The notes: generated from the letters alone by a model not told the origin. Shown: positions 12,405 through 29,250, counted from the stretch's first letter. The stretch: DNA of 64,000 bases from a virus (IMGVR_UViG_3300008113_000307:21919-85918); one strand, 5' to 3'. Made by a program: numbers and translations.

Positions 12405-12473
12405 TGGCTGCTAATAGGCAATGCCAAACAGTACCATTGGAAAATACAATAGCTAAAACCTATGGAAACCGCT

Positions 12474-12502
12474 TGACCTGTAGGTATTTTATGCTATATA
12501 AT
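12474..12502 (+). promoter_or_regulatory. sigma70-like promoter with extended -10
   Basis: TTGACC-17-TGC-TATATAAT upstream of ahpC. Confidence 0.55.
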
Positions 12503-12567
12503 ACTTTATGACATCAGCACAGACTGTGCTGACTCGATCCAATCAACATTTATACATAGGAGAAATA

Positions 12568-14936: not shown

Positions 14937-15127
14937 TGTATTTGCATAGAGAAGATTTAAAAAAGATGTTGGAAATTTTAGAAAAGTTTCCAGAGGTTGA
15001 TGTGGTAGATGTCCAAGTTGACAACAGTTCAGGCATTGGATCGCATACTACCATGCACTTAGTGACCCAGGTCAACGGGATCGACGGTACTTTGGAAGTT
15101 GTTGTTTCCAGCGTAGAGAACTGGTAA
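14933..15127 (+). CDS. Hypothetical small acidic protein
   Basis: ATGA overlap with phosphatase stop; 64 aa. Confidence 0.45.
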   Translation: MMYLHREDLKKMLEILEKFPEVDVVDVQVDNSSGIGSHTTMHLVTQVNGIDGTLEVVVSSVENW

Positions 15128-15132
15128 CCGAT

Positions 15133-15186
15133 TTGACCTAAATTCACACCTGTGCTATAATACAGCATAGGTTAACAAAACAGGAG
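15133..15186 (+). promoter_or_regulatory. Promoter-leader cassette copy 1
   Basis: TTGACC-17-TGTGCTATAAT followed by conserved leader cagcataggttaacaaaacaGGAG and ATG 15193. Confidence 0.65.
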
Positions 15187-15192
15187 TCCAAA

Positions 15193-15366
15193 ATGGTACA
15201 TGCATGGGAAGTCAGCTCTGTTGATCAAGGGGACACTCGTTACCGTGTCGCCCGGGTATACATCAATGCCAACGGCAAGTATACTGTGGAAAAACACCCC
15301 CGCACTTTTGCCTCTCTTGACGCCGCAGAAAAAATTGCCCGAAAACTGAATTTGGTTGACCAATAA
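15193..15366 (+). CDS. Hypothetical small protein (57 aa)
   Basis: Directly downstream of cassette RBS; below the 60-aa cutoff of the ORF track. Confidence 0.5.
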   Translation: MVHAWEVSSVDQGDTRYRVARVYINANGKYTVEKHPRTFASLDAAEKIARKLNLVDQ

Positions 15367-15409
15367 TACCCGATTTGCTATAATAAAGCATAGGTTAACA
15401 AAACAGGAG
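15355..15409 (+). promoter_or_regulatory. Promoter-leader cassette copy 2
   Basis: TTGACC-18-TGCTATAAT then aagcataggttaacaaaacaGGAG, ATG 15416. Confidence 0.6.
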
Positions 15410-15415
15410 CTCAAG

Positions 15416-15685
15416 ATGTCCAAAAGTATCACCCTGCAGATGTTTAGTGACCCCGGCCACGGTTGGGTTCGTTTCCCCAAAGCACGCCTGGCCCGACTGG
15501 GTATTGCTGAAAAGATTTCGGCCTACAGTTATCAGAACGGTGCCATGGCATTCCTGGAAGAAGACTGTGACGTCTCGGTGCTGATCACTGCACTCCGAGC
15601 TCATGGCTATGAGGACATTCGATTCCGTGGCGGTGCCAGCAATCGTCAAAGCAAGATTCGCAATTTTGAATACTACCGTGCCTGA
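15416..15685 (+). CDS. Hypothetical protein (89 aa)
   Basis: Start set at cassette ATG rather than the upstream TTG of the ORF track. Confidence 0.5.
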   Translation: MSKSITLQMFSDPGHGWVRFPKARLARLGIAEKISAYSYQNGAMAFLEEDCDVSVLITALRAHGYEDIRFRGGASNRQSKIRNFEYYRA

Positions 15686-15699
15686 CCCAGGAGCACCAG

Positions 15700-15963
15700 A
15701 TGTATATCGCAATGATGAAACATGCTGAACAAGAGCAGATTGTGAGAGCACTGAAAGGTTGGCAGTTTGATCGCGACACTCATGGTAGCCTCTACGATCG
15801 CGGTGCGTCAGACTCATACTACGGACGCAACCCCAAACCGCACTATGGTGGTGTTGGTGGTGGCTCAGGTCCAACGGTGCCGGTCACCGATGAAGCTAGT
15901 GTTGCTGAATACCTGGCCGGCTACCAAGACAACGAACAGTCAGGTGCCAAAAAAGAATGGTGA
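15700..15963 (+). CDS. Hypothetical Gly-rich protein (87 aa)
   Basis: ORF followed by bidirectional terminator. Confidence 0.45.
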   Translation: MYIAMMKHAEQEQIVRALKGWQFDRDTHGSLYDRGASDSYYGRNPKPHYGGVGGGSGPTVPVTDEASVAEYLAGYQDNEQSGAKKEW

Positions 15964-15980
15964 TTGTTGTTGGTCACGAA

Positions 15981-16006
15981 AAAGCCCCAATGGGGCTTTT
16001 TTCTTT
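15981..16006. terminator. Bidirectional rho-independent terminator
   Basis: aaagcccc-aat-ggggcttt 8-bp stem flanked by A-run and T-run; convergent genes on both sides. Confidence 0.7.
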
Positions 16007-16505
16007 ATCTTGGATAAAGCAAGAAATCTTCTGTTGAACCATCGGCGTCAGTTCTGTTGCCTACGATTGGTGTAGGTCTTCCTTGCACTAGATCAACAAT
16101 CATGCCGTTGTTGGATTTCAGCGACTCTACTGAGTTGTTGCTGTGAGTAATAGCAACATCTGTACTTTTACCAATGGCGTAGACTTGAGTAAGACTGGGT
16201 ACCAATACGCTGGCCCACTTGAGCATGGTGTCGCCGAAGCTGGTTGGTGCGGCAATCTGTTGCGAGCCTTGCGAGCCTTGCGACTGACCTTGTGAGCCAA
16301 ACTGCAGGCTCATGACCGCGGCCACTCTGGCAGCAGTGTCGCCACTGGCAGCAATTTCTTTGAGTGCGTTGGTCCTGGCAATGTCAGCTTCAGATTTGGA
16401 CACTGCAATCTGTTGCTGTGTTTGTGCATACAATGCATAGTTGCTTGTGGCACATCCTGTTAGAAACATTGCGCCCACGGCAATGGCAATTAGGGATTTT
16501 TTCAT
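16005..16505 (-). CDS. Lipoprotein (signal peptide with lipobox LTGC)
   Basis: MKKSLIAIAVGAMFLTGC; RBS aagga upstream on minus strand; only minus-strand gene in this region; SQG repeats. Confidence 0.65.
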   Translation of the reverse strand: MKKSLIAIAVGAMFLTGCATSNYALYAQTQQQIAVSKSEADIARTNALKEIAASGDTAARVAAVMSLQFGSQGQSQGSQGSQQIAAPTSFGDTMLKWASVLVPSLTQVYAIGKSTDVAITHSNNSVESLKSNNGMIVDLVQGRPTPIVGNRTDADGSTEDFLLYPR

Positions 16506-16599
16506 TTGGGATTTTCCTTAGGGTAAGGGCCCTTAAAGAATGTACTAAACCGCTAGGACATTTTCTAAGAAGTCTCTACGGTTATTTATAAATATTTTT

Positions 16600-16896
16600 A
16601 TGACACATCGAAAACACATTGAAGCACTGGTAGAATCTGCCGGCGATTTATGGGCCAAATCGGCCCGTTTTGAGCTGATAGATGTTGATTCTACCAGTTA
16701 TACTTGGCACGTGACCAGTCAAAACACTGTGTACGAAATCTACTACAGTGACAGCGGTGTTATTTCTCTTACGGCACTGCCCTCCAAATGCTGGCCCGGC
16801 AGCAGATCTAGAGAAATCTACAGCGGCAACAATAGTCAATCCAGTTACCAACACATGATTGGACTGCTGGCTGACAATTTGATCGATTTGGTTTGA
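16600..16896 (+). CDS. Hypothetical protein (98 aa)
   Basis: ORF between lipoprotein gene and kinase gene. Confidence 0.4.
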   Translation: MTHRKHIEALVESAGDLWAKSARFELIDVDSTSYTWHVTSQNTVYEIYYSDSGVISLTALPSKCWPGSRSREIYSGNNSQSSYQHMIGLLADNLIDLV

Positions 16897-16921
16897 CAAA
16901 AAACACAAGATAGCATATACT
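16893..16921 (+). promoter_or_regulatory. sigma70-like promoter
   Basis: TTGACA-17-TATACT ending 8 nt before ATG 16929. Confidence 0.5.
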
Positions 16922-16928
16922 GTATGCT

Positions 16929-17402
16929 ATGTCAAATAGTCCTACTGTATATGTGTTGATTGGCTTGCCGGCCGCTGGCAAAAGCACCTGGGTGTCTCAG
17001 CAAGATTGGGCCAGCACTTGTGCCTACATCAGCACCGATCACTATGTGGATCGCTTTGCGGCTCGTATGGGTCAGACTTATAACCAGGTGTTTGAGACTG
17101 TGATGCCCCGGGCCATACGGCTCATGATGCGAGCAGTGCGACGAGCACAGGCTCGGGGTCAAGACATCATCTGGGATCAGACCAACCTGACTCGGGCCAG
17201 TCGTGTCAAAAAGTTTAGAATCCTGCCTGAGTATCGTGCAGTGGCAGTGGTGTTTGCTGCTCCTGAGCCTGAAGAACATGCTCGCAGGCTTGCCAGTCGT
17301 CCGGGCAAGCGGATACCTGACGCAGTGCTGGCCGACATGATTCAGAGTTATGAGCCGCCCGATGAAGGCGAAGGCTTCGAGGAGATTTGGTATGCCCAGT
17401 GA
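16929..17402 (+). CDS. P-loop kinase, polynucleotide kinase (T4 Pnk kinase-domain)-like
   Basis: Walker A GLPAAGKSTW and downstream IWDQTNL / R-rich blocks resemble T4 PNK N-terminal kinase domain; no phosphatase domain. Confidence 0.55.
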   Translation: MSNSPTVYVLIGLPAAGKSTWVSQQDWASTCAYISTDHYVDRFAARMGQTYNQVFETVMPRAIRLMMRAVRRAQARGQDIIWDQTNLTRASRVKKFRILPEYRAVAVVFAAPEPEEHARRLASRPGKRIPDAVLADMIQSYEPPDEGEGFEEIWYAQ

Positions 17403-17604
17403 TGCTGTTGTGTGTCGAGGATGCGGCACTGCAAAAGACTCTGACCGTTGGGGGCAATGGTGGCACCTCAACGGCTACTATGGCTTCCGCGGCAGTTTTT
17501 GTCAAAACTGCTACAGCATGATCTCGCATGATGCCGACGGCAAGCCTTGCAATCCTGGGCAACATCTGTTCATGGTGCTGAAACTACAGAAAGAAAACAC
17601 ATGA
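17392..17604 (+). CDS. Hypothetical Cys-rich small protein
   Basis: CRGCG...CQNC zinc-ribbon-like; overlaps kinase stop. Confidence 0.4.
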   Translation: MPSDAVVCRGCGTAKDSDRWGQWWHLNGYYGFRGSFCQNCYSMISHDADGKPCNPGQHLFMVLKLQKENT

Positions 17605-18116
17605 CTCAAACTGTTCGACGCAAGCCCTTGACCGACAAAGAAGAACGTGTACTGGCCTATGCCCAACTCATGGGTGTGGAGGTGTCCAGCATGAGCCGCA
17701 TTGCCAACCGCATGCGAGCCCAGGCTCTGGAACAAGAAAACGCCCGAACCGTGGCCACGGTGATCAGCGACTATGAGTGGACAGTGGTCAGCAGTGAACA
17801 TCCGCGACAGGTGTATGAGATCTTGAACAAAAGCACAGGTTGGCGTTGGCACTGTCGGTGCACTGGTCGTGGGGCATCATCCTGGCTCAGCGTGGGCTGG
17901 GAGTTTGAAGTAACTTGGACTGCACCCGATGGCACTGCGGGAAAAGAACTGCCCAGCCCCAGTCAACCCCGAGATCTGCAACTGCGATTGTTGCCCGAGC
18001 GTGACCGAGCACTGTATAGCCTGATTCGCTGGATCAGGAACCAGGACTGGGATTATCTTCTCCGTCGGTGTCAAAAACAACAACAGCAAACCAAAAAGAA
18101 AAAGCCTCGACCCTGA
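17601..18116 (+). CDS. Hypothetical protein (171 aa)
   Basis: ATGA overlap; internal Met after purine-rich stretch. Confidence 0.45.
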   Translation: MTQTVRRKPLTDKEERVLAYAQLMGVEVSSMSRIANRMRAQALEQENARTVATVISDYEWTVVSSEHPRQVYEILNKSTGWRWHCRCTGRGASSWLSVGWEFEVTWTAPDGTAGKELPSPSQPRDLQLRLLPERDRALYSLIRWIRNQDWDYLLRRCQKQQQQTKKKKPRP

Positions 18117-18166
18117 TTTGCTCAATATTCCTGTTTGTGCTATAATACATGTATAGCGAAAAGGAG
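18117..18166 (+). promoter_or_regulatory. Promoter-leader cassette variant
   Basis: TTGCTC-18-TGTGCTATAAT then acatgtatagcgaaAAGGAG, ATG 18173. Confidence 0.55.
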
Positions 18167-18172
18167 TTGATT

Positions 18173-18676
18173 ATGGACATGACAGAAAGAGCCCGCGTGT
18201 TTGCCACTGCCGCACATGCCGCTGTGGGTCAACTCCGCAAGTATACGCACGAACCTTACATAGTGCACCCCGCTGAAGTGGTGAGCATTGTGCAAACTGT
18301 GCCGCATACCGAAGCCATGTTGGCCGCGGCCTGGTTGCATGATGTAGTGGAAGACACCGGCGTCACAATAGAAACTGTGCGAGCCGAATTCGGAACAGCG
18401 GTTGCGGACTTGGTGTCATGGTTGACTGATGTGAGTCGTCCCGAACAGGGCAATCGTGCACATCGCAAGGCCTTGGACCGTGCACACACTGCAGCCGCTC
18501 CGGCTGAAGCACAGACTGTGAAGTTGGCTGATTTGATCTCCAACACTCGTAGCATCGTGGCTCACGACGCCAAGTTTGCTGAAACTTACCTCGCAGAAAA
18601 GAGGTTGTTGTTGGAGGTAATGACCCGGGGCGATGCCACGTTGATGGCCATAGCCCGTAGAAATATTGGAGCATGA
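18173..18676 (+). CDS. HD-domain phosphohydrolase, RelA/SpoT-hydrolase-like
   Basis: HEPYIVHPAEV...AAWLHDVVEDT matches the (p)ppGpp hydrolase HD signature. Confidence 0.6.
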   Translation: MDMTERARVFATAAHAAVGQLRKYTHEPYIVHPAEVVSIVQTVPHTEAMLAAAWLHDVVEDTGVTIETVRAEFGTAVADLVSWLTDVSRPEQGNRAHRKALDRAHTAAAPAEAQTVKLADLISNTRSIVAHDAKFAETYLAEKRLLLEVMTRGDATLMAIARRNIGA

Positions 18677-18677
18677 T

Positions 18678-18812
18678 ATGAGCCAGCGTCAATGGACTGT
18701 GAAAATCTGGGACGGGTATTCCAACAGTGAATATCAACGTCAAGGCACGTATCAGCAGGTGGCAAATAGTCTGGCAGGACTGCCACCTGCATATATTTGG
18801 AGCATGATATGA
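18678..18812 (+). CDS. Hypothetical small protein (44 aa)
   Basis: Preceded by ttggagcatgatATG, the same motif that precedes the next gene. Confidence 0.35.
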   Translation: MSQRQWTVKIWDGYSNSEYQRQGTYQQVANSLAGLPPAYIWSMI

Positions 18813-19105
18813 ACCCACGTATTCGAGAACTGATGGTTGAACTCAAAAAGACTGTTTCGACTCATCGTGGTGCTGAAGTGCTAGCTGGCTATGATGAGAT
18901 TGAAAAGTTCGCCGAGTTGATTGTGCGGGAATGTATGACAGTAACTAAAGATTACACCTGTAATCAAGGTTGGGATTATTCTGCACCTGTTGCATTAGCA
19001 AGGCATTTTGGATTTGGAGTTGAAGAATGGAACAACTATTTGACAAATTGCTCAACCAAGCCATCGACGGCGGTGATGAAACATCGTTTCGGAGTTGAAC
19101 AATGA
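18809..19105 (+). CDS. Small-protein paralog family member 1 (MNxRIxEL...KFAELIVREC...HFGVE)
   Basis: Conserved N-terminus MNPRIREL, central KFAELIVRECM and C-terminal HFGFGVEEW. Confidence 0.55.
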   Translation: MNPRIRELMVELKKTVSTHRGAEVLAGYDEIEKFAELIVRECMTVTKDYTCNQGWDYSAPVALARHFGFGVEEWNNYLTNCSTKPSTAVMKHRFGVEQ

Positions 19106-19305
19106 ACGAACGAATTCGAGAACTTAGAGAACAGGCTTGGGCACTGGTATCTGATGAAGAACGAGATTGTGGCGAATTGTATGAGACACGGTGGGAACGA
19201 TGTGATCAAAAGTTCGCCGAGTTGATTGTGAGAGAATGTGCCTTACAGTGCGTTCATAATGAAGATATGGACCTGATTGAAAAACATTTCGGAGTTGAAG
19301 AATGA
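19102..19305 (+). CDS. Paralog family member 2
   Basis: MNERIRELREQ...KFAELIVRECA...KHFGVEE. Confidence 0.55.
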   Translation: MNERIRELREQAWALVSDEERDCGELYETRWERCDQKFAELIVRECALQCVHNEDMDLIEKHFGVEE

Positions 19306-19461
19306 AACTACATTTATATTATGTTGTTCAAGGCAGTGAAGCCGCAGGTTACACACTAGTCAACGGTCCATTCTCCTCATTGGATCGGGCGCTTGACGCT
19401 AAATCTGGTCAGCTGTTCAGCGAAGGTATGACTGTTGTTAAACACACAATCGAGGTTACGA

Positions 19462-19722
19462 ATGAACGAACGAATCAATAAACTTGCTCTACAGGCTGAA
19501 CAATATGCCCGGGATGACTTAATTGAACGCCGTGCAGTGGGTGCTCCGCTCTATACTGAGGGTGAATATGAGAACAAGATCAAGCAAAAGTTTGCTGAGT
19601 TGATTGTGCTGGAATGTGCTGGATTATTTCCAAATGTGTATGTAGAAATTGAAAACGAATACGGGCACACTCCTGTTATTGCGGCGGACTATATAAAAGA
19701 ACATTTCGGAGTTGAATCATGA
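19462..19722 (+). CDS. Paralog family member 3
   Basis: MNERINKLALQAEQ...KFAELIVLECAG...KEHFGVES. Confidence 0.55.
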   Translation: MNERINKLALQAEQYARDDLIERRAVGAPLYTEGEYENKIKQKFAELIVLECAGLFPNVYVEIENEYGHTPVIAADYIKEHFGVES

Positions 19723-19946
19723 TTGAGCCAATCGTGCCTGTCACACTGTATAAAACAACCTTCACTGGTGTGTTGGCCTCGGCGGCTGTGGGCAAGGGTC
19801 GAGTAGAGAGCGAAATGTGGAGTCAGACTCTGTATCCCAACGGCAGTGCAGTGACTCGAATATATCATCAATCGATTGAAGTGTATGACCACAGAGCAGT
19901 GGTCACTCAGCACAATGTTCGACCCAATCTGGATGTAATGGCATGA
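19719..19946 (+). CDS. Hypothetical protein (75 aa)
   Basis: ATGA overlap with preceding paralog. Confidence 0.4.
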   Translation: MIEPIVPVTLYKTTFTGVLASAAVGKGRVESEMWSQTLYPNGSAVTRIYHQSIEVYDHRAVVTQHNVRPNLDVMA

Positions 19947-19976
19947 GCCCTGTAGAACTTTTTTTTGGAGTATAAC

Positions 19977-20195
19977 ATGAACAAACGAATTCAAGCTCTT
20001 GCTGAACAGGCTGGATACACAAAAGATATGTTTGGTGTAGGACACTGGGATATGCCAGAGTGTAAAAAGTTCGCTGAGTTGATTGTGCGGGAATGTGCTG
20101 GTATTGCCAATAAACAATTTAGTGCGGCGTCTGGGTTGGATGATCGAGATTGTTGGACTGCGGCTGAGATGAAGAAACATTTCGGAGTTGAATAA
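19977..20195 (+). CDS. Paralog family member 4
   Basis: MNKRIQALAEQAG...KFAELIVRECAG...KKHFGVE. Confidence 0.55.
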   Translation: MNKRIQALAEQAGYTKDMFGVGHWDMPECKKFAELIVRECAGIANKQFSAASGLDDRDCWTAAEMKKHFGVE

Positions 20196-20372
20196 TGGAA
20201 ACGTTTAGTTTTATCATTATGATAATCGCCGTTGCAGTGCTGCTGTGGGTGGTAGCCTTGGTGTTTGGTCTTGTGTTCATGTATGCTGTAATGAATTGGA
20301 TAGAAAAATGATTGAAATAATTGCGTTGATCTGCGTTGTTGGACCTGTTATAATTGTTCACTACCTGGGCAA

Positions 20373-20588
20373 ATGAAAGAACATATGAACGAACTTGAAA
20401 CTGCACTGAAGTCGCATGACTGGACACATCTGGGCTGTTTTGCCCGACCTGCCCTGGATCAACTCATGCGCACACACCCGGATGCGGCCGCGGCCAAGGC
20501 ACTGTGGGAACAGTATTGCCCCTGGAGTTCAGCCAACGGTGGTTATATTGCCTGGGCCAAAACACCCGCCAACTGGACCAGAACATGA
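20373..20588 (+). CDS. Hypothetical protein (71 aa)
   Basis: ORF preceding paralog 5. Confidence 0.4.
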   Translation: MKEHMNELETALKSHDWTHLGCFARPALDQLMRTHPDAAAAKALWEQYCPWSSANGGYIAWAKTPANWTRT

Positions 20589-20815
20589 ACAAACGAATTC
20601 GAGAACTGGCTCTACAGGCTGGCATACAGATGTTCGAAGACAAATCGTTTAGCTGGAGCGTGATCGCCGGCACTGACCACAACCTACAACGGTTTGCTGA
20701 GTCAATTGTGACAGAATGTGTGCGTGTTTGTGTGGCTGATCTAGCTGATCCTAGAGATTCAGTTGAACTCCAGTGTGCAAAAAAGATTCAGAAACATTTT
20801 GAGGTTGAATCGTGA
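20585..20815 (+). CDS. Paralog family member 5
   Basis: MNKRIRELALQAG...RFAESIVTECV...QKHFEVES. Confidence 0.55.
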   Translation: MNKRIRELALQAGIQMFEDKSFSWSVIAGTDHNLQRFAESIVTECVRVCVADLADPRDSVELQCAKKIQKHFEVES

Positions 20816-21096
20816 AGGACGAAAGCATGTTGCCAGTGAGTGAACAAAGCCTGGTGTTCCGACTACGAAAGCGAGCAGAAATTCGCCGGTCGATCAAGGA
20901 CCGCAAAAGTGTGCAACAAGGTGCTGCTGACCGTATTGCTGATCTACTGGAAGAGGCTGCGGCAGAAATTGAGGCACTGCAGGCCCTGAGACACGAACTG
21001 CAGGGTGTGCTGGTGGATTCGGAACAGGACGAGTTTGATGCAGTGTGTCGAGAGACTGTGCAGTATGTGATTGACCGCATGGCAGGCGTCAAATGA
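20812..21096 (+). CDS. Hypothetical coiled-coil protein (94 aa)
   Basis: Overlaps previous stop. Confidence 0.4.
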   Translation: MKDESMLPVSEQSLVFRLRKRAEIRRSIKDRKSVQQGAADRIADLLEEAAAEIEALQALRHELQGVLVDSEQDEFDAVCRETVQYVIDRMAGVK

Positions 21097-21131
21097 TCCC
21101 GGGCCAATAAATACATTTTTAAGGAGCCGTT

Positions 21132-21425
21132 ATGAAATACTCAAGTCTAGCGGCGTTCCTATTCTGCCTAGCCCACAGCGTAGCCAACGCCCAACCAGTG
21201 AAAATTGACAAACCAGTGGTGTGCGACAAAACCGCCACAGTGTTTGCGGCATTGGAAGAAAAATTCCAGGAAATGCCGGTCTGGGGAGGCAACAACTCTC
21301 GAAGCAACGCAAACTATGCGCTGATGTTGAACCCCGAAACCAAAACCTGGACACTGGTGCAGTTCAACACTGAGACTGCCTGTATCTTGGGCATAGGCAA
21401 CAACTATGTGACACAAAAACTGTGA
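21132..21425 (+). CDS. Secreted hypothetical protein (signal peptide)
   Basis: RBS aaggag; MKYSSLAAFLFCLAHSVANA cleavable signal. Confidence 0.55.
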   Translation: MKYSSLAAFLFCLAHSVANAQPVKIDKPVVCDKTATVFAALEEKFQEMPVWGGNNSRSNANYALMLNPETKTWTLVQFNTETACILGIGNNYVTQKL

Positions 21426-21515
21426 TTGACAGGTTGTGATATTTTCAGTACAATATCAATTGTCACCCTAAACTTATTGGTATTAAAATAAATCTATTCT
21501 GAAGAGAATCACCGT

Positions 21516-21740
21516 ATGAAAGCAACCTCAGCCACTGGAGTCACTGGATTCGTCCTGCACACTATTGACGGGTACGTGTTCCGGGTGTATGAAAAAGACA
21601 CCGAAGCCTTCCGGGACTATGACTTGCACCACTGGGATCTGGAAGTCAGAATCGTGGACGAGGACGCTGTGTTCTACGAACTGGACAACGGTAAGAAACT
21701 GTTGGACTACAGCCCTGCAACCCTGGGAATTGACCAATAA
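21516..21740 (+). CDS. Hypothetical protein (74 aa)
   Basis: ORF ending just before cassette copy 3. Confidence 0.45.
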   Translation: MKATSATGVTGFVLHTIDGYVFRVYEKDTEAFRDYDLHHWDLEVRIVDEDAVFYELDNGKKLLDYSPATLGIDQ

Positions 21741-21783
21741 TCCCCGTTGTGCTATAATACAGCATAGGTTAACAAAACAGGAG
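21730..21783 (+). promoter_or_regulatory. Promoter-leader cassette copy 3
   Basis: TTGACC-17-TGTGCTATAAT then cagcataggttaacaaaacaGGAG, ATG 21790. Confidence 0.65.
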
Positions 21784-21789
21784 TTCAAC

Positions 21790-22062
21790 ATGAACGTGCA
21801 AGAAATCAACCGTGCTATCGTCTCCGGCCATCTTACCAATGCTGATCTCAACAGTGTGATTGACGCTGTGAAGTTTGCTCGTGCTCGGCTTACACGACAA
21901 AACAAGGCCAGTCTCATGCTGGGCGATACGGTGCAGTTTACCAGCACACGAACTGGCCGAACCATGCAGGGCACAGTTCGAAAGATTGCCATCAAGTTTG
22001 TCACAGTCAACACCCCCACAGGCCTGTGGAAAGTTCCAGCCAGCATGCTGACTGCAGTTTAA
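21790..22062 (+). CDS. Hypothetical protein (90 aa)
   Basis: Start at cassette ATG. Confidence 0.5.
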   Translation: MNVQEINRAIVSGHLTNADLNSVIDAVKFARARLTRQNKASLMLGDTVQFTSTRTGRTMQGTVRKIAIKFVTVNTPTGLWKVPASMLTAV

Positions 22063-22088
22063 TTTCAACAATCACCAGGGAGATTTCT

Positions 22089-22259
22089 ATGAGCCGCACC
22101 AAAGATTATTTTACCATGTACGAAGATCCCACCTATGATGATGACGGCACCTGCCAGGATCTGGAGCCTGCAGAGACGGCCAGTACAGACACAGGCAGTG
22201 TGGCATTTGCTCAAATGATTGAGCAGTTGACTAGAAAACCTGAGCTAGAATTTGACTGA
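22089..22259 (+). CDS. Hypothetical acidic small protein (56 aa)
   Basis: RBS agggag 7 nt upstream. Confidence 0.4.
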   Translation: MSRTKDYFTMYEDPTYDDDGTCQDLEPAETASTDTGSVAFAQMIEQLTRKPELEFD

Positions 22260-22403
22260 GATAAATAATCTTGCAACGCCAAATTCATCGACGTCGGAAA
22301 TAAATTGACGCCTGGAGTGTATCTCCTTTACTAGATATCAAATATCTACAACGCCAACCGTAAGCACTTGACGGTGCCAGCACTATTAATATAAAATGTT
22401 AAT

Positions 22404-23453
22404 ATGGCATCAATTTATTTTCGTGATCAAAACAACAACATCTATCTCACACGATATCAAGCTGAATCTTCTGCCGCAGGCAATTTAGAGTTTGTGTGTG
22501 GTCATTATAATTTTGCAGCTCATCGCGATGCATCAATTGAAACTGCAGTTGATTACCGAACAAAAGAAATTGCAGACACCTATCAATACACCCAGTTATT
22601 CTACAGTGGCGGCAGCGATTCGCACACCATATTAAAATCCTTTGTAAAAAATAATATACCGTTGTCTGAAATAGTGCTCAGCAGATGGAGTACCGACAAC
22701 AATTTTTTGCAAGAACAAAACAAAGAAATAAATCAAATTGCTGTTCCGCTACTGAACAGATATCAAGATTATCTTGACCGATTTCAGGTCAAAATTACGT
22801 TTTGTGATTTTGGGCTAGACCAAATTGCCAAGGTCTATCATCCTGATCAACTGGCAATACTGCACGGCAATGGAATTTACAATCCTTGCACGTTCAACGT
22901 GATAAATTTTGCGTATCCTCAATTGAGGGATCATCACAACATGTGTCAAATTGTTGGCTGGGAAAAACCATTGATGCAATACAAAAACAAGAAGTTTTAT
23001 ACTTTTATGTTTGACAAAGCCTTGCCGTTTCTAACAGAAAATCCTGAAGTTTTTGCCAGGCAAGAAAATTTCTACTTTGGTGGTGATGGATTTCTAACAG
23101 TAAATCAATTTAGACGAGCAACTGAGCTAATAGACACCAGGCAGTGTACACAAAATCAGCTGTTTACCAACTCCGATAAAGATTTTTTCAACAGTGTGAT
23201 TTCCAACCTTAGGGACGCAGATGAGTGTGGCCTAAGCAATACTGAACACATAGGAAAATCTTTTACTGTTGATGTCCCTGAAAAAGAAAAAATATTTTTT
23301 TCCAATCTAAAAAAGCATCCGGGTGTGTGGAATTCAATTACTACCTATTGCCAATCTGAAAAATTTTCTGACATTACTAATCGGTGTTCTTATCTTTCCA
23401 ACAACAAGCTGACCATTGATACGCTGGTGGCAACTCAGCAGGAGATCACATGA
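22404..23453 (+). CDS. PP-loop superfamily ATP pyrophosphatase (SGGxDS motif), AT-rich
   Basis: QLFYSGGSDSHTIL; 349 aa; low GC; promoter-like TTGACG/TATAAA upstream. Confidence 0.45.
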   Translation: MASIYFRDQNNNIYLTRYQAESSAAGNLEFVCGHYNFAAHRDASIETAVDYRTKEIADTYQYTQLFYSGGSDSHTILKSFVKNNIPLSEIVLSRWSTDNNFLQEQNKEINQIAVPLLNRYQDYLDRFQVKITFCDFGLDQIAKVYHPDQLAILHGNGIYNPCTFNVINFAYPQLRDHHNMCQIVGWEKPLMQYKNKKFYTFMFDKALPFLTENPEVFARQENFYFGGDGFLTVNQFRRATELIDTRQCTQNQLFTNSDKDFFNSVISNLRDADECGLSNTEHIGKSFTVDVPEKEKIFFSNLKKHPGVWNSITTYCQSEKFSDITNRCSYLSNNKLTIDTLVATQQEIT

Positions 23454-24703
23454 TTGAAGCCACTGTGATGGGAATATTTGCTGGCTTGATCAGCGGTCTA
23501 GTTCCAGCAGCCGGACTATTGACTGCCTTGATCATGATGTTGCCACTGTTGACATACCTGTCGGCCAGCGAGCTGTTGTTGTTTTATATGGTGCTAGGCA
23601 CGGTCACACAGTATATCACAGCCATTCCTTCGATACTGATCTCTATTCCTGGGCATCCTTCTAGCATGCACACTGTGATAGAATCCAGCAAACTACTGCC
23701 TGAGCAAAAAAAACAAGTGCTTGGCACTGCATCTCTCCACAGTTTTTTTGCAGTTATGGGTACGTTTTTGATTTTGGTGCTGGCGTCAAGTGCAATTGAT
23801 CAACACATTTCTGTGCTGTTTAGATCCGAAATAATTTTTTTGTTGTTGTTGTTGACGCTGGCGCTGACCACTGCATTTAGCAAAAACAACATGATTGTTT
23901 CTACAGTGCTACTGGGCGTGGGAATCGCACTGTCGTTTGTTGGATACAATTTCTTTTTTGATACCGATTTCACATTTGGGCTAACTTTTATTGCGGCCGG
24001 ACTTGATCCAGTGATTGTTGTGCTGTTGTTTTTGTGTTTTCCTGAATTGTTTAAAAAATTTCATCCACCCAGTCTCGATCAAGCCCGACCTGTGCCAACA
24101 AGATCCAACTCGAATGACCTAGCAAATTCGTCAACTGCAGCCAGTGTGGGATTCTTGGGAGGCCTGGTACCTGGGCTGACCACCATTGCCAGTTCATCAT
24201 TTTACTACTACCTGGGCCGACTGTTTAAACTGCAGCCTCGGCAGCTAGTGGTAGGAACAGAAACTGCAAATGCAGTGGGTTCCATAAGTCAGGTTCTGCC
24301 AGTGTTGTATTTTGGAATCCCAATTCTGGCCAGCGAAGCATTGTTGCTGGCGTTGATGCAGAGTCGAGGATTTTCAATCTCTTTGTTCGATCTTTCGGCA
24401 TTCTTTAGTTCGAGCGTTGGTTATTTTATTCTGGCCAACTTGGTTGCCCTGGCAGTGTGTCTGTTTGCTGCCAAAACTAAGTTTGTTCTGAATTTGTCAC
24501 TACTCAACAAGATTGCCACAGTCTTGCTGATAGTGTCACTGGTCTTCTATGTACTGTTTAACGGTAATGTTGATATCAAACTTATGCAATTACTAATGTT
24601 GTTGCCGTTTGCATTACTGTTCGGCAAACTAGATACTACCCCAGTTGTTGTGGGGTTTTTGATTTCGCCGATGTTTTTTGAATCGGCGTCTAGAATTTTT
24701 TAA
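23450..24703 (+). CDS. Polytopic membrane protein, TctA-like (tripartite tricarboxylate transporter permease family)
   Basis: More than 10 hydrophobic helices; N-terminal GLISGLVPAAGLLTALIMMLPL...VLGTVTQYITAIPSILISIPGHPSS resembles the TctA/DUF112 signature. Confidence 0.45.
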   Translation: MIEATVMGIFAGLISGLVPAAGLLTALIMMLPLLTYLSASELLLFYMVLGTVTQYITAIPSILISIPGHPSSMHTVIESSKLLPEQKKQVLGTASLHSFFAVMGTFLILVLASSAIDQHISVLFRSEIIFLLLLLTLALTTAFSKNNMIVSTVLLGVGIALSFVGYNFFFDTDFTFGLTFIAAGLDPVIVVLLFLCFPELFKKFHPPSLDQARPVPTRSNSNDLANSSTAASVGFLGGLVPGLTTIASSSFYYYLGRLFKLQPRQLVVGTETANAVGSISQVLPVLYFGIPILASEALLLALMQSRGFSISLFDLSAFFSSSVGYFILANLVALAVCLFAAKTKFVLNLSLLNKIATVLLIVSLVFYVLFNGNVDIKLMQLLMLLPFALLFGKLDTTPVVVGFLISPMFFESASRIF

Positions 24704-24714
24704 AAGGAAAAAGT

Positions 24715-25566
24715 ATGAAAATTATTTCAACATGTTTAGCATTAATAATGTGGGCCTCGGCTGTGAATGCAAAAGAATTACACATTGTTTCAGCGGGATC
24801 GAAAACTGGATCTCTTACTATGCAGGCCACTGCCTATGCTAGTGATTTGGCCAACACTTACCAACTGCAGTTGTCAGCACCGGGAAATTTTTGTCAGGCG
24901 CTGACTCAGGTCAACTCTACTACGCCAACCATGTTTTTATGGGCCCACGACTTTGAAGCGGCTGTGCAATCAGGTCAGTGCCCAGTTAAACTGCCTGCAA
25001 ACATGCAACCTATTAGATTCATCAAATCTTCAAGTTTGATATGTTCATTGACCAACGCTGATTCGATCTTTAAAGGCAACGCAAAAATTGCACATACGGT
25101 GCCCAAAAAAATGTTTTCAACAGTTATTTCAAACATAAACACAGCGTTTGGCACTGCACATCAAGGAGTCATGTTCAACGGAAGTGGGCAAGTACGTCTA
25201 GCCTTGCTCAACGGTGAAGTTGATTTGGCAATCTTAACAAACGAACATGCCGATGTAATCAGAAGCAAGGGAGGCTCGTGTAAATTTGTGCTAGACGACC
25301 AAAGCAACATGCCCGGAGTAGTTCCGTTACAACAGTTTAGTCAATCAGTCAAACTACGACATTCATTTAATACCATGGTCTACGCTGTCAACATGTCCAA
25401 AGCCCAGGCAGCTGAGTTGAAACGCAACATGCAACAAGCTCACAAAAATTGCAATAGTGCAATTGGTCAGTACACCAGGTGCGATTCCTTGTTGGATCTA
25501 TCATGGGAAATTGACCAGAAAATACTGTCAAGATGGCAGGAGGATGTGGCTGATTTGATTGAATAA
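24715..25566 (+). CDS. Periplasmic substrate-binding-like protein (signal peptide)
   Basis: MKIISTCLALIMWASAVNA signal; 283 aa; adjacent to TctA-like permease. Confidence 0.4.
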   Translation: MKIISTCLALIMWASAVNAKELHIVSAGSKTGSLTMQATAYASDLANTYQLQLSAPGNFCQALTQVNSTTPTMFLWAHDFEAAVQSGQCPVKLPANMQPIRFIKSSSLICSLTNADSIFKGNAKIAHTVPKKMFSTVISNINTAFGTAHQGVMFNGSGQVRLALLNGEVDLAILTNEHADVIRSKGGSCKFVLDDQSNMPGVVPLQQFSQSVKLRHSFNTMVYAVNMSKAQAAELKRNMQQAHKNCNSAIGQYTRCDSLLDLSWEIDQKILSRWQEDVADLIE

Positions 25567-25582
25567 ACGCATCGCTCTAAAT

Positions 25583-25636
25583 TTGACCAATATTCACCCT
25601 TGTGCTATAATACAGCATAGGTTAACAAAACAGGAG
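25583..25636 (+). promoter_or_regulatory. Promoter-leader cassette copy 4
   Basis: TTGACC-17-TGTGCTATAAT then cagcataggttaacaaaacaGGAG, ATG 25642. Confidence 0.65.
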
Positions 25637-25641
25637 CAGGC

Positions 25642-25854
25642 ATGACAACCACTTACACTGTGCAAGAACTGGCCCAACGGTATGCCGAGGCCCTGGTAGA
25701 ATTCCACGAGCTGGATCAGCATGTGCGAGCAGCCGGTGACAGCCCCTTGCGTCAAGATGTGTCAGCACGCCGTACAGCTCGCGACGCCATATATGATGCC
25801 CAGCAGGCCCTGGATGAGGCTTGCCAGCGTCAAGCACAGATGAACCATGCGTGA
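25642..25854 (+). CDS. Hypothetical protein (70 aa)
   Basis: Cassette-driven ORF. Confidence 0.5.
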   Translation: MTTTYTVQELAQRYAEALVEFHELDQHVRAAGDSPLRQDVSARRTARDAIYDAQQALDEACQRQAQMNHA

Positions 25855-25923
25855 TTTGACACAAATTTGCAGAAGTCGTACAATACAGTTTGTCAGCTAA
25901 ATTCAACCACCGAAAGGAAACCC

Positions 25924-27006
25924 ATGTCAGATAGTCGTACCGTAACCTCCGCCCAAGCTCGCAACAGTCTGTTGACAGCTTTCCGTGTCAAACGTCCGCT
26001 GTTCCTGTGGGGCCCTCCTGGCATTGGCAAAAGCGAACTGGTTGAAGGCATCACCCAGGAACTGAACGGTCTCATGATTGACTTGCGATTGGGCCAGATG
26101 GAACCCACTGACATTCGTGGCATTCCGTTCTACAACAAAGAAGTTGGCAAGATGGATTGGGCTCCCCCAATCGAACTGCCCGACGCCGAAACTGCCAAGC
26201 AATACCCTATTGTGGTGTTGTTTTTGGACGAGTTGAACTCAGCCGCTCCTAGTGTGCAAAGTGCCGCGTACCAGTTGATCTTGAACCGTCGCATTGGCAA
26301 ATATGTGTTGCCTGACAACGTGGTCATGGTGGCTGCTGGCAACCGCGAAAGCGACAAAGGTGTCACATACCGCATGCCAACTCCGCTGGCCAACCGTTTC
26401 ATTCACCAGGAAATGAAGGTGGACTTTGCCAGCTGGCAAGAGTGGGCTGTGAACAACCGTGTGCACAAGGACGTGGTTGGTTACTTGAGTTTTGCCAAGC
26501 AAGACCTGTATGACTTCGACGCCAAGAGTGCCAGCCGTGCCTTTGCTACTCCACGCTCTTGGAGCTTTGTGAGCCAGCTGTTAGATGACCGTGTGGATGA
26601 CGAAACTCTGACCAACTTGGTTGCAGGTACTGTGGGCGAAGGCCTTGCTGTGAAGTTCATGGCACACCGCAAGATTGCCAGCCGCATGCCCAACCCTGCA
26701 GACATCTTGGCAGGCAAGGTCACCACCTTGGATGTGAAAGAAGTTTCGGCCATGTACAGCTTGGTGATCTCCATGTGCTACGAACTCAAGGCTGCTGTTG
26801 AGACCAAAGTGGAAGACAAAAAGTTCCACGAAATGGCCGACAACTTCCTGGGCTACATGATGAAGAACTTTGAAACTGAGTTGACTGTGATGGGTGCACG
26901 TATTGCGTTGACCACGTACAACTTGCCCTTCTTGCCAACCAAGATGAAGAACTTCGACGAGTTCCACCAGCGTTTTGGCAAATACATCCTGCAGGCTTCG
27001 GCCTGA
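25924..27006 (+). CDS. MoxR-like AAA+ ATPase
   Basis: RBS aaaggaaa; Walker A LWGPPGIGKS, Walker B VLFLDELNSA. Confidence 0.8.
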   Translation: MSDSRTVTSAQARNSLLTAFRVKRPLFLWGPPGIGKSELVEGITQELNGLMIDLRLGQMEPTDIRGIPFYNKEVGKMDWAPPIELPDAETAKQYPIVVLFLDELNSAAPSVQSAAYQLILNRRIGKYVLPDNVVMVAAGNRESDKGVTYRMPTPLANRFIHQEMKVDFASWQEWAVNNRVHKDVVGYLSFAKQDLYDFDAKSASRAFATPRSWSFVSQLLDDRVDDETLTNLVAGTVGEGLAVKFMAHRKIASRMPNPADILAGKVTTLDVKEVSAMYSLVISMCYELKAAVETKVEDKKFHEMADNFLGYMMKNFETELTVMGARIALTTYNLPFLPTKMKNFDEFHQRFGKYILQASA

Positions 27007-27025
27007 CCCGAAAGGGTTTAATGGA

Positions 27026-27055
27026 AAGGCTGTGTTTCTAGCACAGCCTTTTTTA
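27026..27055 (+). terminator. Rho-independent terminator
   Basis: aaggctgtg-tttcta-gcacagcctt followed by a T-run. Confidence 0.7.
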
Positions 27056-27057
27056 AT

Positions 27058-27375
27058 ATGCGATATCACATAGTTCGACTTGACGCTAGATATTCCTATT
27101 CAAAGGATTTCAAATACATGCTGGAGTTTTCCAAAGACTCTTGGCTGGGAACTGGCGTATTGAATTTTGATCGTAGTCGGCGTTGGTTCAATCAAACGTT
27201 TGGCTGGAGCCAGGATGTGGAAACTAGATCTGCTGTGCTACGATCATCAGATTTTGAGGCCAGTGACTACAATTTCAAATGGGCCTACAGTGCCAAATAT
27301 CGTGAGTATCGCATCTATGTGCAGGATGAAGCTGTGTTGAACTGGTTTGTTTTGAGTCACCCCAATGCGACATAG
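27058..27375 (+). CDS. Hypothetical protein (105 aa)
   Basis: ORF after terminator. Confidence 0.4.
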   Translation: MRYHIVRLDARYSYSKDFKYMLEFSKDSWLGTGVLNFDRSRRWFNQTFGWSQDVETRSAVLRSSDFEASDYNFKWAYSAKYREYRIYVQDEAVLNWFVLSHPNAT

Positions 27376-27545
27376 ATTTGAATTTAGATCCCGTGACCTA
27401 GACGCCGCTGAGCGGGTCAAATGGTGCAGAGTCAATCTTGGAGCCAGAGGAGAGCGATGGGACTTTGCGGGCGGACTCTCAATCACCATCGTGATCCGTT
27501 CGGACGAGGATGCCGAAGCCTACAACAAAGTCTGGAGATTTTGGA

Positions 27546-27824
27546 ATGTCCTTAAAGGTAACTGTAAAACAGAGACTCATCGTATTTCATAATCCCGGCG
27601 AGTGGAGCGACATCTACAGCAGGATTTTGCAGGAATATGGAATGGGAATGGCCATACGCCCTCGACTGCGGCGTGAACTGGGGTTTGTGTATCGGCATCA
27701 TCGTGGACTAGTGCCCAACCCACACCCTCGCAAAAATGGGCCCACCATGCACTACGAGGACCAAGTGTGTTTGGATTTCTACTCAGATGCCGCACAATCC
27801 TGGTTTCAACTGCGATATTTGTAA
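27546..27824 (+). CDS. Hypothetical protein (92 aa)
   Basis: Internal ATG after ggag. Confidence 0.4.
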   Translation: MSLKVTVKQRLIVFHNPGEWSDIYSRILQEYGMGMAIRPRLRRELGFVYRHHRGLVPNPHPRKNGPTMHYEDQVCLDFYSDAAQSWFQLRYL

Positions 27825-27840
27825 CTCAGGTATATAACAC

Positions 27841-28902
27841 ATGTCTTGGTATTTTTCTAGTGTTCTTGAGAACAAATCAGATTTTTTTGAATTCTTTGAA
27901 TTTAATCAATATTCAATGCACCTAGTCGAACTTTGGGATCCATCGGTACATGTTGGCGGCGCTCATAAAATTCCCTGCAGCTTGATGGGATCAAGCAACA
28001 CAAAGTTAGTAATTGATGCAAGTGAATTTATCAGTTTATTTGAATTTGATACTGATTCTCTAACGACATTTCTTCAAACCAATCGGGTCGTAATATATCA
28101 AAATATTGATTGCTTTGTCGAATTGACAAAGCGTCTGCGCATTGCGTTTGAAAATATTGACTCTAATATACCTAAAAATTGTTTACATGTTATTTTTGAC
28201 GCGGTTCCGTCAACTGAATTTTATTTTTATTCGTTTAAAAATATCAATTTTACAGTGTTAACGCACAATCACTTTTTTAAACTTCCTAGGATACACAAAG
28301 CCAGCCTAGAAAAAAACAAAACCAGCAAAGATTTTCTGCTAACAACTATAAAAAAATCTAGTCGACCACACAGAGAACTATTGTGGAAACAATTGCAAGC
28401 GTATCCAGAATTAACGGTTAATTCAACAATTCTTTATAAAACTCGGCAAAAAAAATGGATAGGTCATCAGACCCATCAACATCAATGGTCAGACGGCCAT
28501 CCAAGCATGGATCTATATCGAAACAACTACGTTGAATTGGTGCCTGAGACTCTTTACAAGCACGGATATTTTTTTACTGAAAAAACAATGAAACCCATTG
28601 CTACCAAGACGCCGTTTTTGATTGTTTCAACTTGTCACTATCTTAAATTTTTAAAACAACAAGGATTTAAAACTTTTGACAACTTGATTGACGAATCATA
28701 TGATTCGTTTCCTCAAATTGAAGACCGAATTAGATCCCTTGTGCAAACAATGCACGACATATCGAAAAATGGTGCAGGCGATTTCTATCAGCAAGCCCAA
28801 GACACGCTGAACTATAATCATCAGCGACTGTTGGAAATATCTGGAGGTTGGCGATATTATCGTGATTTAGACTACCAAAGAATTATTGATAGTATGTGTT
28901 AG
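27841..28902 (+). CDS. Glycosyltransferase-like protein, TEK-motif paralog (AT-rich copy)
   Basis: C-terminal block FFTEKTMKPIATKTPFLIVS...GFKTFDNLIDESYD shared with 39723, 40807 and 50681; motif resembles GT10 fucosyltransferase TEKxW...VPVV. Confidence 0.4.
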   Translation: MSWYFSSVLENKSDFFEFFEFNQYSMHLVELWDPSVHVGGAHKIPCSLMGSSNTKLVIDASEFISLFEFDTDSLTTFLQTNRVVIYQNIDCFVELTKRLRIAFENIDSNIPKNCLHVIFDAVPSTEFYFYSFKNINFTVLTHNHFFKLPRIHKASLEKNKTSKDFLLTTIKKSSRPHRELLWKQLQAYPELTVNSTILYKTRQKKWIGHQTHQHQWSDGHPSMDLYRNNYVELVPETLYKHGYFFTEKTMKPIATKTPFLIVSTCHYLKFLKQQGFKTFDNLIDESYDSFPQIEDRIRSLVQTMHDISKNGAGDFYQQAQDTLNYNHQRLLEISGGWRYYRDLDYQRIIDSMC

Positions 28903-28908
28903 CTTGAT

Positions 28909-28964
28909 TTGACCAAAATTCCCATTTGTGCTATAATACTTGTATAGCGTAACAAAACAGGAGC
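28909..28964 (+). promoter_or_regulatory. Promoter-leader cassette variant
   Basis: TTGACC-17-TGTGCTATAAT then acttgtatagcgtaacaaaacaGGAG, ATG 28970. Confidence 0.6.
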
Positions 28965-28969
28965 ACCAA

Positions 28970-29200
28970 ATGACTATCAAGCGTTTCAAACAGACCCAGC
29001 GTTTTCGTATTTGCTCCGGCACAGTTAGCTTCTATGCCACTGCCCGGCAAATCCGTTCCGGTGTTGGCGACTTTGTTAAGTTCAATGCTGCCACACAAAA
29101 GGCTCTGGATGCCCTGGAATTTTCCCGAGCTGATGCCCCAGCTGTGGGCCTGGCAGGCACCTGGGAAGGTATTCCTGTACAAATCAACGTGGCAGTTTGA
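28970..29200 (+). CDS. Hypothetical protein (76 aa)
   Basis: Cassette-driven ORF. Confidence 0.5.
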   Translation: MTIKRFKQTQRFRICSGTVSFYATARQIRSGVGDFVKFNAATQKALDALEFSRADAPAVGLAGTWEGIPVQINVAV

Positions 29201-29250
29201 CACTAAATCACGATTGCTGTACAATATACACTTAGTCAACAAGGAACAAC

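Follow-up and report, generated by a model that had tools for sequence, protein, structure and literature searches.

The 64,000-nucleotide (nt) stretch of viral DNA studied here (IMGVR_UViG_3300008113_000307:21919-85918; called the window below, with coordinates counted from its first letter) carries six copies of a promoter-leader cassette, all on the + strand. Each copy joins a sigma70-type promoter to a short leader that ends in a Shine-Dalgarno (SD) sequence, followed by the start codon of a gene. We located the copies by alignment and by a scan for promoter hexamers. The cassettes and the genes behind them are listed here in order. (ORF is short for open reading frame. Loci and contigs that we retrieved and compared with the window have L-numbers.)

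15133..15192, + strand: cassette 1, leader A; -35 element at 15133-15138, TGC and TATAAT (15156-15161), leader ACAGCATAGGTTAACAAAACAGGAG at 15162-15186, TCCAAA, ATG at 15193
15193..15366, + strand: ORF of 57 amino acids (aa), no family match; its TAA stop lies within the spacer of cassette 2, and its ortholog in L102 stands behind a different promoter spacer
15356..15415, + strand: cassette 2, leader A with one mismatch (AAAGCATAGG...); -35 element at 15356-15361, -10 element at 15379-15384, leader at 15385-15409, ATG at 15416
15416..15685, + strand: ORF of 89 aa, no family match and no homolog among 80 related loci
18118..18172, + strand: cassette 3, short B-like leader; -35 element TTGCTC at 18118-18123, -10 element at 18141-18146, leader ACATGTATAGCGAAAAGGAG at 18147-18166, ATG at 18173
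18173..18676, + strand: ORF for an HD-domain phosphohydrolase (PF13328, E = 1.2e-16; phrog_990)
21730..21789, + strand: cassette 4, leader A; -35 element at 21730-21735, -10 element at 21753-21758, leader at 21759-21783, ATG at 21790
21790..22062, + strand: ORF of 90 aa; a related gene stands behind the same leader in L112
25583..25641, + strand: cassette 5, leader A; -35 element at 25583-25588, -10 element at 25606-25611, leader at 25612-25636, ATG at 25642
25642..25854, + strand: ORF of 70 aa, directly followed by the promoter of an ATPase gene (25856)
28909..28969, + strand: cassette 6, leader B; -35 element at 28909-28914, -10 element at 28932-28937, leader ACTTGTATAGCGTAACAAAACAGGAG at 28938-28963, ATG at 28970
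28970..29200, + strand: ORF of 76 aa; the -35 element of the next promoter (29197) contains its TGA stop

In all six cassettes, the promoter spacer is 17 nt and the -10 element is TATAAT (a 6/6 match, which reads on as TATAATA). TGC stands at -15 to -13, which makes this an extended -10 element. The -35 element is TTGACC in five copies (5/6 relative to TTGACA) and TTGCTC at 18118, and the two hexamers together match at 11 of 12 positions or nearly so throughout. The leaders are 20-26 nt long, with AGGAG at the 3' end and the ATG 5-6 nt further on. The original prediction, made from the sequence of the window, had described a six-copy cassette with an extended -10 element and with gene starts at these same six ATG codons. 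These points hold (TG is at -15/-14 in 6 of 6 copies), but the spacer, which it gave as 17/18, is always 17 and never 18.

The original prediction had also described an identical 24-nt leader, with variant copies at 18173 and 28970, which is true in part. We found this leader, CAGCATAGGTTAACAAAACAGGAG, without change at 15163, 21760, and 25613, and with one mismatch at 15386 (the copy at 15356 reads TTTGCTATAAT, not TGTGCTATAAT). The copies at 28909 and 18118 have a second type of leader (type B), of the form ACTTGTATAGCG(TAACAAAAC)AGGAG; this reads ACTTGTATAGCGTAACAAAACAGGAG at 28909 and is shortened to ACATGTATAGCGAAAAGGAG at 18118. Dinucleotide shuffles of the window gave an expectation of 0.00 chance matches to the 24-nt leader, and the repeated cassette is clearly real. 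A perfect 36-nt block, TGTGCTATAATACAGCATAGGTTAACAAAACAGGAG, is common to three copies, whose promoter spacers and SD-ATG spacers differ. Furthermore, the core AACAAAACAGGAG occurs exactly at just five sites within the 64 kb, and all five are linked to promoters.

Family and homology comparisons found the genes behind the cassettes to be mutually unrelated. Besides the phosphohydrolase, they encode five small proteins without a family match (57, 89, 90, 70, and 76 aa). Each cassette-driven gene has 0-2 homologs in the 80 related loci, and we found none in the first viral loci with the same leader. Orthologs of three of them are present in near-identical metagenome contigs. As for the conserved neighbours, among all of the loci fetched by then, the ATPase had matches in 84, the VWA/DUF2201 gene in 70, and two small neighbours in 46 and 37. 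Several upstream stop codons are embedded in the next promoter (at 15364-15366, at 21738-21740 within the spacer of cassette 4, at 22257-22259, and at 29198-29200), either as the TGA in TTGAC or as the TAA in a CAATAAT spacer. Because of this embedding, the gene units are packed without intergenic space.

The promoters of the cassettes have many counterparts. The window contains 25 strong sigma70-type sites on the + strand and 4 on the - strand, and all but two of the former lie within 359-29197, 5' of + strand genes or tRNAs. As originally predicted, similar promoters that lack the leader precede AhpC (12473, with an 18-nt spacer), the gene at 13852 (13793), the gene at 10371 (10336, with TCGACC), and tRNA blocks (462 and 5102). 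Two more promoters of this class head conserved genes:

25856..25884, + strand: promoter of the same class (TTGACA-N17-TACAAT) with a different leader, 5' of the conserved MoxR-like ATPase
29197..29225, + strand: promoter of the same class (TTGACA-N17-TACAAT) with a leader like the family consensus (ATACACTTAGTCAACAAGGA), 5' of the conserved VWA/DUF2201 gene; orthologous to promoters of the relatives

For comparison, we used 80 related loci from IMG/VR whose ATPase is 72-91% identical to that of the window (their parent contigs are up to 344 kb long). In these loci, the pattern of promoter, SD sequence, and ATG occurs 224 times on the strand of the ATPase and once on the opposite strand. With the hexamers alone, and with the window and viral-contig loci included, 386 of 431 sites lie on the coding strand (386 on + versus 45 on -). 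A sequence logo of 358 non-redundant + strand promoters reaches past the hexamers: it reads gG-TTGACC-AaaAATtc..tT.TGc-TATAAT-A....Y-A-T-A-g and continues into an A-rich stretch. The T, T, G, A, and C of the -35 element are nearly invariant, and the T and G of TGn are enriched. Upstream of -37, the information content is about 0, save for the G-G directly before the -35 element.

The same 358 promoters suggest where transcription begins. The distance from the -10 element to the start codon (median 29 nt) is bimodal, with a sharp peak at the 7th nt and a broad mode at 26-32 nt. ATG lies at exactly the 7th nt after the -10 element in 40 of the 358 (neighbouring offsets have 0-5), and the logo has a conserved Y-A-T-A-g at offsets 6-10. 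The ATG peak therefore puts +1 on the A that is conserved in YATAG, and transcripts in the window should begin with AUAGGUUAAC... and have a 5' untranslated region (UTR) of about 25 nt. Together, the sequence comparisons indicate that these promoters are a real class, which has a conserved 5' UTR, heads small genes, and is kept in related phages.

We also noticed apparently leaderless genes, which would make up about 11% of early genes; for a phage whose promoters are of the proteobacterial type, this would be unusual. Sites of this type lie in the window at 10336-10373 (ATG at 10371 behind the promoter at 10336), 16893-16931 (ATG at 16929, for a P-loop kinase-like ORF, behind the promoter at 16893), 12473-12510 (the ATG of AhpC, at 12508, is 6 nt after the -10 element of the promoter at 12473), 4249-4288, and 3036-3074, and also in loci L015-L094. 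The ORFs of such genes are conserved; for instance, MKLEINEILQWTGAV is found in more than 10 loci.

The window is part of a jumbo-phage-like genome, and its lineage is one of uncultured freshwater or estuarine jumbo phages that are distant kin of Pseudomonas phage PA5oct. Positions 15000-26000 of the window had no nucleotide match in 50,697 phage records, PA5oct included. The MoxR-like ATPase (25900-27006) is 49% identical at the amino acid level to that of PA5oct, the closest cultured relative, and its identity to the Phosso and Atu_ph07 ATPases is 40-46%. PA5oct is sensitive to rifampicin and is dependent on the RNA polymerase of its host, and 32 PA5oct promoters with TTGAC and TATAATA motifs lie at mapped start sites (Lood et al. 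2020, PMC7318152). The cassettes of the window share these motifs. In contrast, the PA5oct genome is far more AT-rich, and we found no shared leader after its promoters in the 41 kb around its ATPase gene. The original prediction had proposed a phage-specific promoter class with a conserved 5' UTR. The class and its 5' UTR stand, but the recognition signals (TTGACC, N17, TGnTATAAT) are near-consensus for the host sigma70, and PA5oct depends on the host polymerase.

The ATPase gene and the gene for a DUF2201 metallopeptidase/VWA protein (29251-30471), both on the + strand, form a conserved pair that is also found in PA5oct, and each has its own sigma70-type promoter. (The ATPase is of the AAA+ type. 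The PA5oct homolog of the VWA protein carries the annotation "HNH endonuclease.")

The same leader heads many other genes in related phages. We found 37 exact copies of the 22-mer GCATAGGTTAACAAAACAGGAG in 31 metagenome contigs. All of them lie at one set distance 3' of TTGACC-N17-TATAAT, with a start codon 5-7 nt further on (ATG in all copies but one, which has TTG, in L112). With the window and the viral-contig loci added and one mismatch allowed, there are 44 copies of the leader, which fall into 22 gene clusters with unrelated N-termini and 14 clusters of promoter spacers. Three variants of the discriminator (ACA, TATG, and TTAT/TATT) are found among these 44. Six genes are found with at least two promoter types, and five promoter types with at least two genes. 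For instance, L095, L097, and L110 have the promoter at 15133 of the window (all 17 spacer positions are identical) in front of three other genes. Conversely, the genes at 15193 and 25642 stand behind different spacers in L102 and L112, respectively. These mixed combinations indicate that promoter spacers, leaders, and genes recombine with one another.

The downstream ORFs have a median length of 73 aa (range 37-142), and in 12 of 27 cases the stop codon is also where the next promoter starts; the TGA often falls within TTGAC. Leader type A recurs unchanged in different phage contigs, and so does type B. Outside the copies that were selected by exact match, we found a continuum of variants that differ at 2-8 positions, and because all of them keep YAACAAAACAGGAG, the ribosome-binding part is the most constrained. 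The family as a whole employs other leaders as well, such as ATACACATAGACAGCAAAAAGGAG.

Comparisons with close relatives of the window reveal insertions and deletions at the cassettes. Two features are needed to describe them:

15385..25920, + strand: hyperplastic region of about 10.5 kb, which holds cassettes 3-5 and is replaced by a single small gene in L015-L020 and L039
22252..22257, + strand: half-cassette, with an orphan -35 element TTGACT (aatTTGACTGAgat) whose last T opens the TGA stop (22257-22259) of ORF 22026-22259; there is no -10 element seventeen nt on

In L015-L020 and L039, the order is AhpC, a homolog of ORF 14430, a promoter that matches window 15350-15385, one small gene, and the ATPase. 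Homology of the window to L015-L020 stops at 15385, directly after the -10 element of cassette 2. L109, which is 99% identical to the window, lacks 27818-28904, with the junction 4 nt 5' of the -35 element of cassette 6. L112 (92% identical) lacks the same segment and also 22263-25579. The left edge of this 3.3-kb island is the orphan -35 element, and its right edge is 3 nt 5' of the -35 element of cassette 5 (aatTTGACC). In L102 (90% identical), an extra cassette and a 44-aa gene are inserted between cassette 1 and the gene of cassette 1. Because indels begin at cassette edges in comparisons with relatives that are 90-99% identical, the cassettes seem to mark recombination junctions. Furthermore, both of the orthologous cassettes of L112 read ...GATATGC-TATAAT and those of the window read ...T(T)TGTGC-TATAAT, with flanks that are about 92% identical. 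A change that is shared by both L112 cassettes points to conversion among the copies within a genome.

Some other features of these segments can be mentioned here. The island at 22263-25579 (+ strand) has a lower G+C content (0.41-0.45) and contains three large ORFs (349, 417, and 283 aa) with no Pfam or PHROG match. The hyperplastic region includes a run of paralogous small genes at 18797-20815 (+ strand), with repeat families D4, D5, D6, and D10 every 300-600 nt. ORF 27841-28902 (+ strand, 353 aa) is the indel relative to the 99%-identical L109, and 55 nt of it (28574-28628) resembles ORFs 39723-40829 and 40807-41988 (+ strand; repeat family D8), which suggests that these are paralogs.

The original prediction had suggested folding the leader in search of a conserved regulatory structure, and we found none. 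Alone, the type A leader (25 nt) gives a minimum folding energy of 0 kcal/mol, and the type B leader gives -1.8 kcal/mol, a value that does not beat shuffled sequences. Relative to shuffles, z is +0.14 to +1.82 for the six translation initiation regions, so none is more stable. Across 35 distinct initiation regions with the 22-nt leader, the regions are less stable than their shuffles (mean z = +0.53, and 27 of 35 are above 0). No Rfam family matches the leader of the cassette, even at E <= 1. The leaders of the family consist of 45% A, 28% T, 16% C, and 10% G, and in the predicted fold the GGAG is present and unpaired.

We propose that each copy is a self-contained early-expression cassette of the host sigma70 type that doubles as homology for recombination (probability roughly 0.7). 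Host sigma70 holoenzyme would read the near-consensus -35 element (TTGACC), the 17-bp spacer, and the extended -10 element (TGnTATAAT), and would start at the A that lies 6-7 nt after the -10 element. The resulting 5' UTR of about 25 nt would be G-poor, A/C-rich, and unstructured by itself, and would present a strong SD sequence (AGGAG) 5-6 nt 5' of the AUG. Because one unit combines a promoter, an open leader, and a strong SD sequence, each small gene would be strongly and independently transcribed and translated when the DNA enters the cell. The unit of 36-60 nt, which is repeated within the genome and among co-infecting relatives, would also be a substrate for homologous recombination and gene conversion. 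Recombination at the cassettes would insert, delete, or swap small genes in the hyperplastic region, and would keep the copies alike.

Several points weigh against this proposal. We infer the transcription initiation, early timing, and expression strength of the cassettes, as well as the mechanism of recombination, from sequence. The metagenome copies of the leader were fetched by exact match, which biases that sample toward identity. A block of 22-36 nt that stays exact across diverged spacers and three discriminators exceeds what a generic SD sequence and open leader would need. The predicted accessibility of the leader is 0.616, compared to 0.623 with shuffled downstream sequence, so the native context gives no gain. 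The indel of ORF 27841-28902 (relative to L109 and L112) has a cassette at one side only, with no repeat at the other junction. Finally, in the 13-kb loci, leaders within a genome are barely more similar than leaders from different genomes (0.355 versus 0.344; 1.6% versus 0.4% of pairs are at least 80% similar). With so slight a difference, concerted evolution is not a strong global signal; it stands out only when specific pairs are compared, such as L112 and the window.

The closest parallel is the PeSL (promoter-early stem-loop) cassettes of T4-type phages (Arbiol et al. 2010, PMC2839356; Comeau et al. 2014, PMC4122927). Crossovers at PeSLs were mapped, in phage RB49, between the -10 element and the SD sequence or ATG, and degraded PeSL copies with only a -35 element lie at junctions (PMC2839356, PMC4122927). 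Neighbouring PeSLs also recombine to give mini-circles (PMC2839356). Like PeSLs, the cassettes combine a near-consensus sigma70 promoter (N17), an SD sequence, and a start codon in one conserved unit of about 60 nt, and are repeated between small ORFans in hyperplastic regions that differ among close relatives. In both systems, close relatives differ by indels and replacements at the units, a -35-only remnant marks a junction (here at 22252), and the crossover zone of RB49 corresponds to the most identical block of our cassettes. In contrast, we found no PeSL-type terminator or stem-loop beside any of the six copies: the 60 nt 5' of the cassettes have z = +0.72 to -2.95, just one of these stretches has significant stability, and a GC hairpin with a T-run is absent from all six. 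The AT-rich region 5' of the -35 element of PeSLs is absent from the family logo, the most conserved part here is the transcribed leader, and the lineage is that of PA5oct-related uncultured jumbo phages rather than T4-like phages. Because the stem-loop and the AT-rich region are absent and the lineage is different, the cassette is not a strict member of the PeSL group.

The early promoters of T4 and T5 (such as P_N25) are very strong host-sigma70 promoters in which not just the hexamers but also parts of the spacer and of the initially transcribed region are conserved. As proposed for the cassettes, they drive short early transcripts with a strong SD sequence. Their consensus sequences differ from that of the cassettes, and the A/T-rich UP-like region of T4 is absent here. 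As far as we know, no exact 22-nt leader common to tens of genes has been described for them. The morons of lambdoid phages are also autonomous units of promoter and gene that lie between conserved genes, but they typically have their own terminator and do not have a repeated, sequence-identical head.

Among the alternatives, the one that survives best is that the invariant leader AUAGGUUAACAAAACAGGAG is a sequence-specific address label, through which an RNA-binding factor of the phage or host would switch the early accessory mRNAs off or up together. We consider this unlikely, but it deserves weight, and such a role can be compatible with promoter and ribosome-binding function. The factor might be a RegA-like translational repressor, a RegB-like endoribonuclease acting at GGAG, or a host protein of the Hfq or CsrA type acting on A-rich or GGA motifs. 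The label would account for a 22-nt block that is exact in at least 22 genes and 14 promoter types while the adjoining spacer, discriminator, and SD-ATG spacer diverge, and for two discrete leader types that are each identical across different phage contigs. The core AACAAAACAGGAG is never found at internal genes of the window that lack a promoter, which suggests a role tied to the 5' end of the mRNA. The leader is also predicted to be single-stranded, like the targets of RegA and RegB (PMC3014915). A more specific version, which we find slightly more doubtful, holds that AUAGGUUAACAAAACAGGAG and its type B sister AUAGCGUAAC... are portable labels that enrol captured genes in a co-regulated early regulon, and that they are spread by recombination and held letter-perfect by selection.

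No candidate factor was found, however, and there were no regA or regB homologs in the part of the window that was scanned. The cassettes do resemble the unstructured early-mRNA initiation regions of T4 with a GGAG SD sequence, which are common targets of coordinate post-transcriptional shut-off by RegB and RegA (PMC3014915). But the RegB consensus is GGAGRAYARAA (PMC3014915), and in the cassettes a pyrimidine follows GGAG: the next bases are TCCAAA, CTCAAG, TTCAAC, CAGGC, or CACCAA, not RAYARAA. We rejected a RegB-type target on this ground, as the GGAG is unpaired but lacks the 3' context. The A/U-rich operator over the AUG that RegA uses is not present in the cassettes either. Moreover, the less biased copies form the continuum of variants described above, in which only the 3' YAACAAAACAGGAG is fixed, as expected for a ribosome-binding region, and the family overall uses other leaders. 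Recombination and gene conversion could by themselves account for the identity of the copies.

Another idea is that the conserved block acts as DNA, either as the operator of a repressor, over the -10 element and +1, or as a -10-like element (TAGGTT/TAGCGT, at +2 to +7) that brings about a sigma70-dependent promoter-proximal pause for an antiterminator to use, as at lambda pR'. Both leader types fit TAnnnT just past +1, the type B copies have a perfect 6-bp inverted repeat (GCTATA-N7-TATAGC) that spans the -10 element and +1, and the A-T-A-g at +1 to +4 of the logo is the reverse complement of the C-T-A-T at the upstream edge of the -10 element. But type A has no such palindrome, and the 358 promoters show no covariation between -13 and +4, -14 and +5, or -15 and +6 (p = 0.09, 0.74, and 0.53, respectively). 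Close variants do not retain TAnnnT (they have TGGGTC, or TAGACA in the family consensus), and no gene for a repressor or a Q-like protein was identified. We judge a role as DNA to be quite improbable.

That the copies are recent duplications or chance resemblances without a selected function seems very improbable. The copies are short and the genome is rich in paralogous small genes, but the chance expectation is 0.00, the genes behind the cassettes are unrelated, the block of identity is sharply bounded between the -10 element and the SD sequence, and it recurs in dozens of other phage contexts, always with the correct promoter geometry and strand. Least credible of all is that the leader folds into a cis-regulatory RNA (such as a riboswitch, attenuator, or thermometer), a reading for which the conserved 5' UTR is the sole point in favour, given a leader energy of 0 kcal/mol, initiation regions that never beat their own shuffles, the empty Rfam search, and just 25 nt or so between the inferred start site and the AUG, which is too short for a regulatory fold.

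Several neighbouring genes in the window are worth noting. An 83-aa ORF at 14133-14384 (+ strand) is a homolog of the omega subunit of RNA polymerase (RpoZ; PF01192, E = 1.4e-8; TIGR00690 above its cutoff), and it matches the omega chains of solved RNA polymerase structures at E = 1e-7. A phage-encoded omega subunit in the early region may bear on the use of the host polymerase. At 12508-13613 (+ strand), an AhpC/TSA peroxiredoxin is followed by a CMD (AhpD-like) protein, as in loci L126-L174. The best genuine bacterial homologs of the AhpC are from Burkholderiales/Oxalobacteraceae (64-69%), which points weakly to a Burkholderiales host. There are also matches of 76-89% on short contigs of metagenome-assembled genomes (MAGs) labelled Haliscomenobacter, Hydrogenophaga, Rhizobium, Fischerella, and others. 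The taxonomy of these is inconsistent, and they are probably phage DNA that was mis-binned into MAGs.

The window also has 31 tRNA genes in blocks at 667-11888 (+ strand), several of them behind the same sigma70-type promoters (such as 462 and 5102). Among these tRNA genes, a 180-aa ORF at 11134-11676 (+ strand) matches peptide chain release factor 1, but only its C-terminal half (NCBIfam prfA at E = 4e-41, which falls far short of the cutoff for full length; Pfam RF-1 and the end of PCRF). ORFs similar to endonuclease VII and RNase H lie between the tRNA blocks at 10604-11008 and 11906-12376 (+ strand). On the other strand, an 801-aa ORF at 37319-39724 (-) has internal repeats of about 200 nt (families D2, D13, and D16) and no PHROG match.

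In our view, the cassette is mainly explained by known principles, as a simpler form of promoter-cassette-mediated modular shuffling in a family of uncultured jumbo phages. It marks likely transcription starts and early accessory genes of this large family at nucleotide resolution. Because the genes that it heads are small ORFans, a kind that usually encodes host-takeover or anti-defence functions, the motif offers a practical way to look for such genes in metagenomes. The cassette is also a natural, compact promoter and ribosome-binding-site part. Gene shuffling by promoter cassettes, which has so far been described for T4-like phages, appears to be active in an unrelated lineage with an element that has no terminator.

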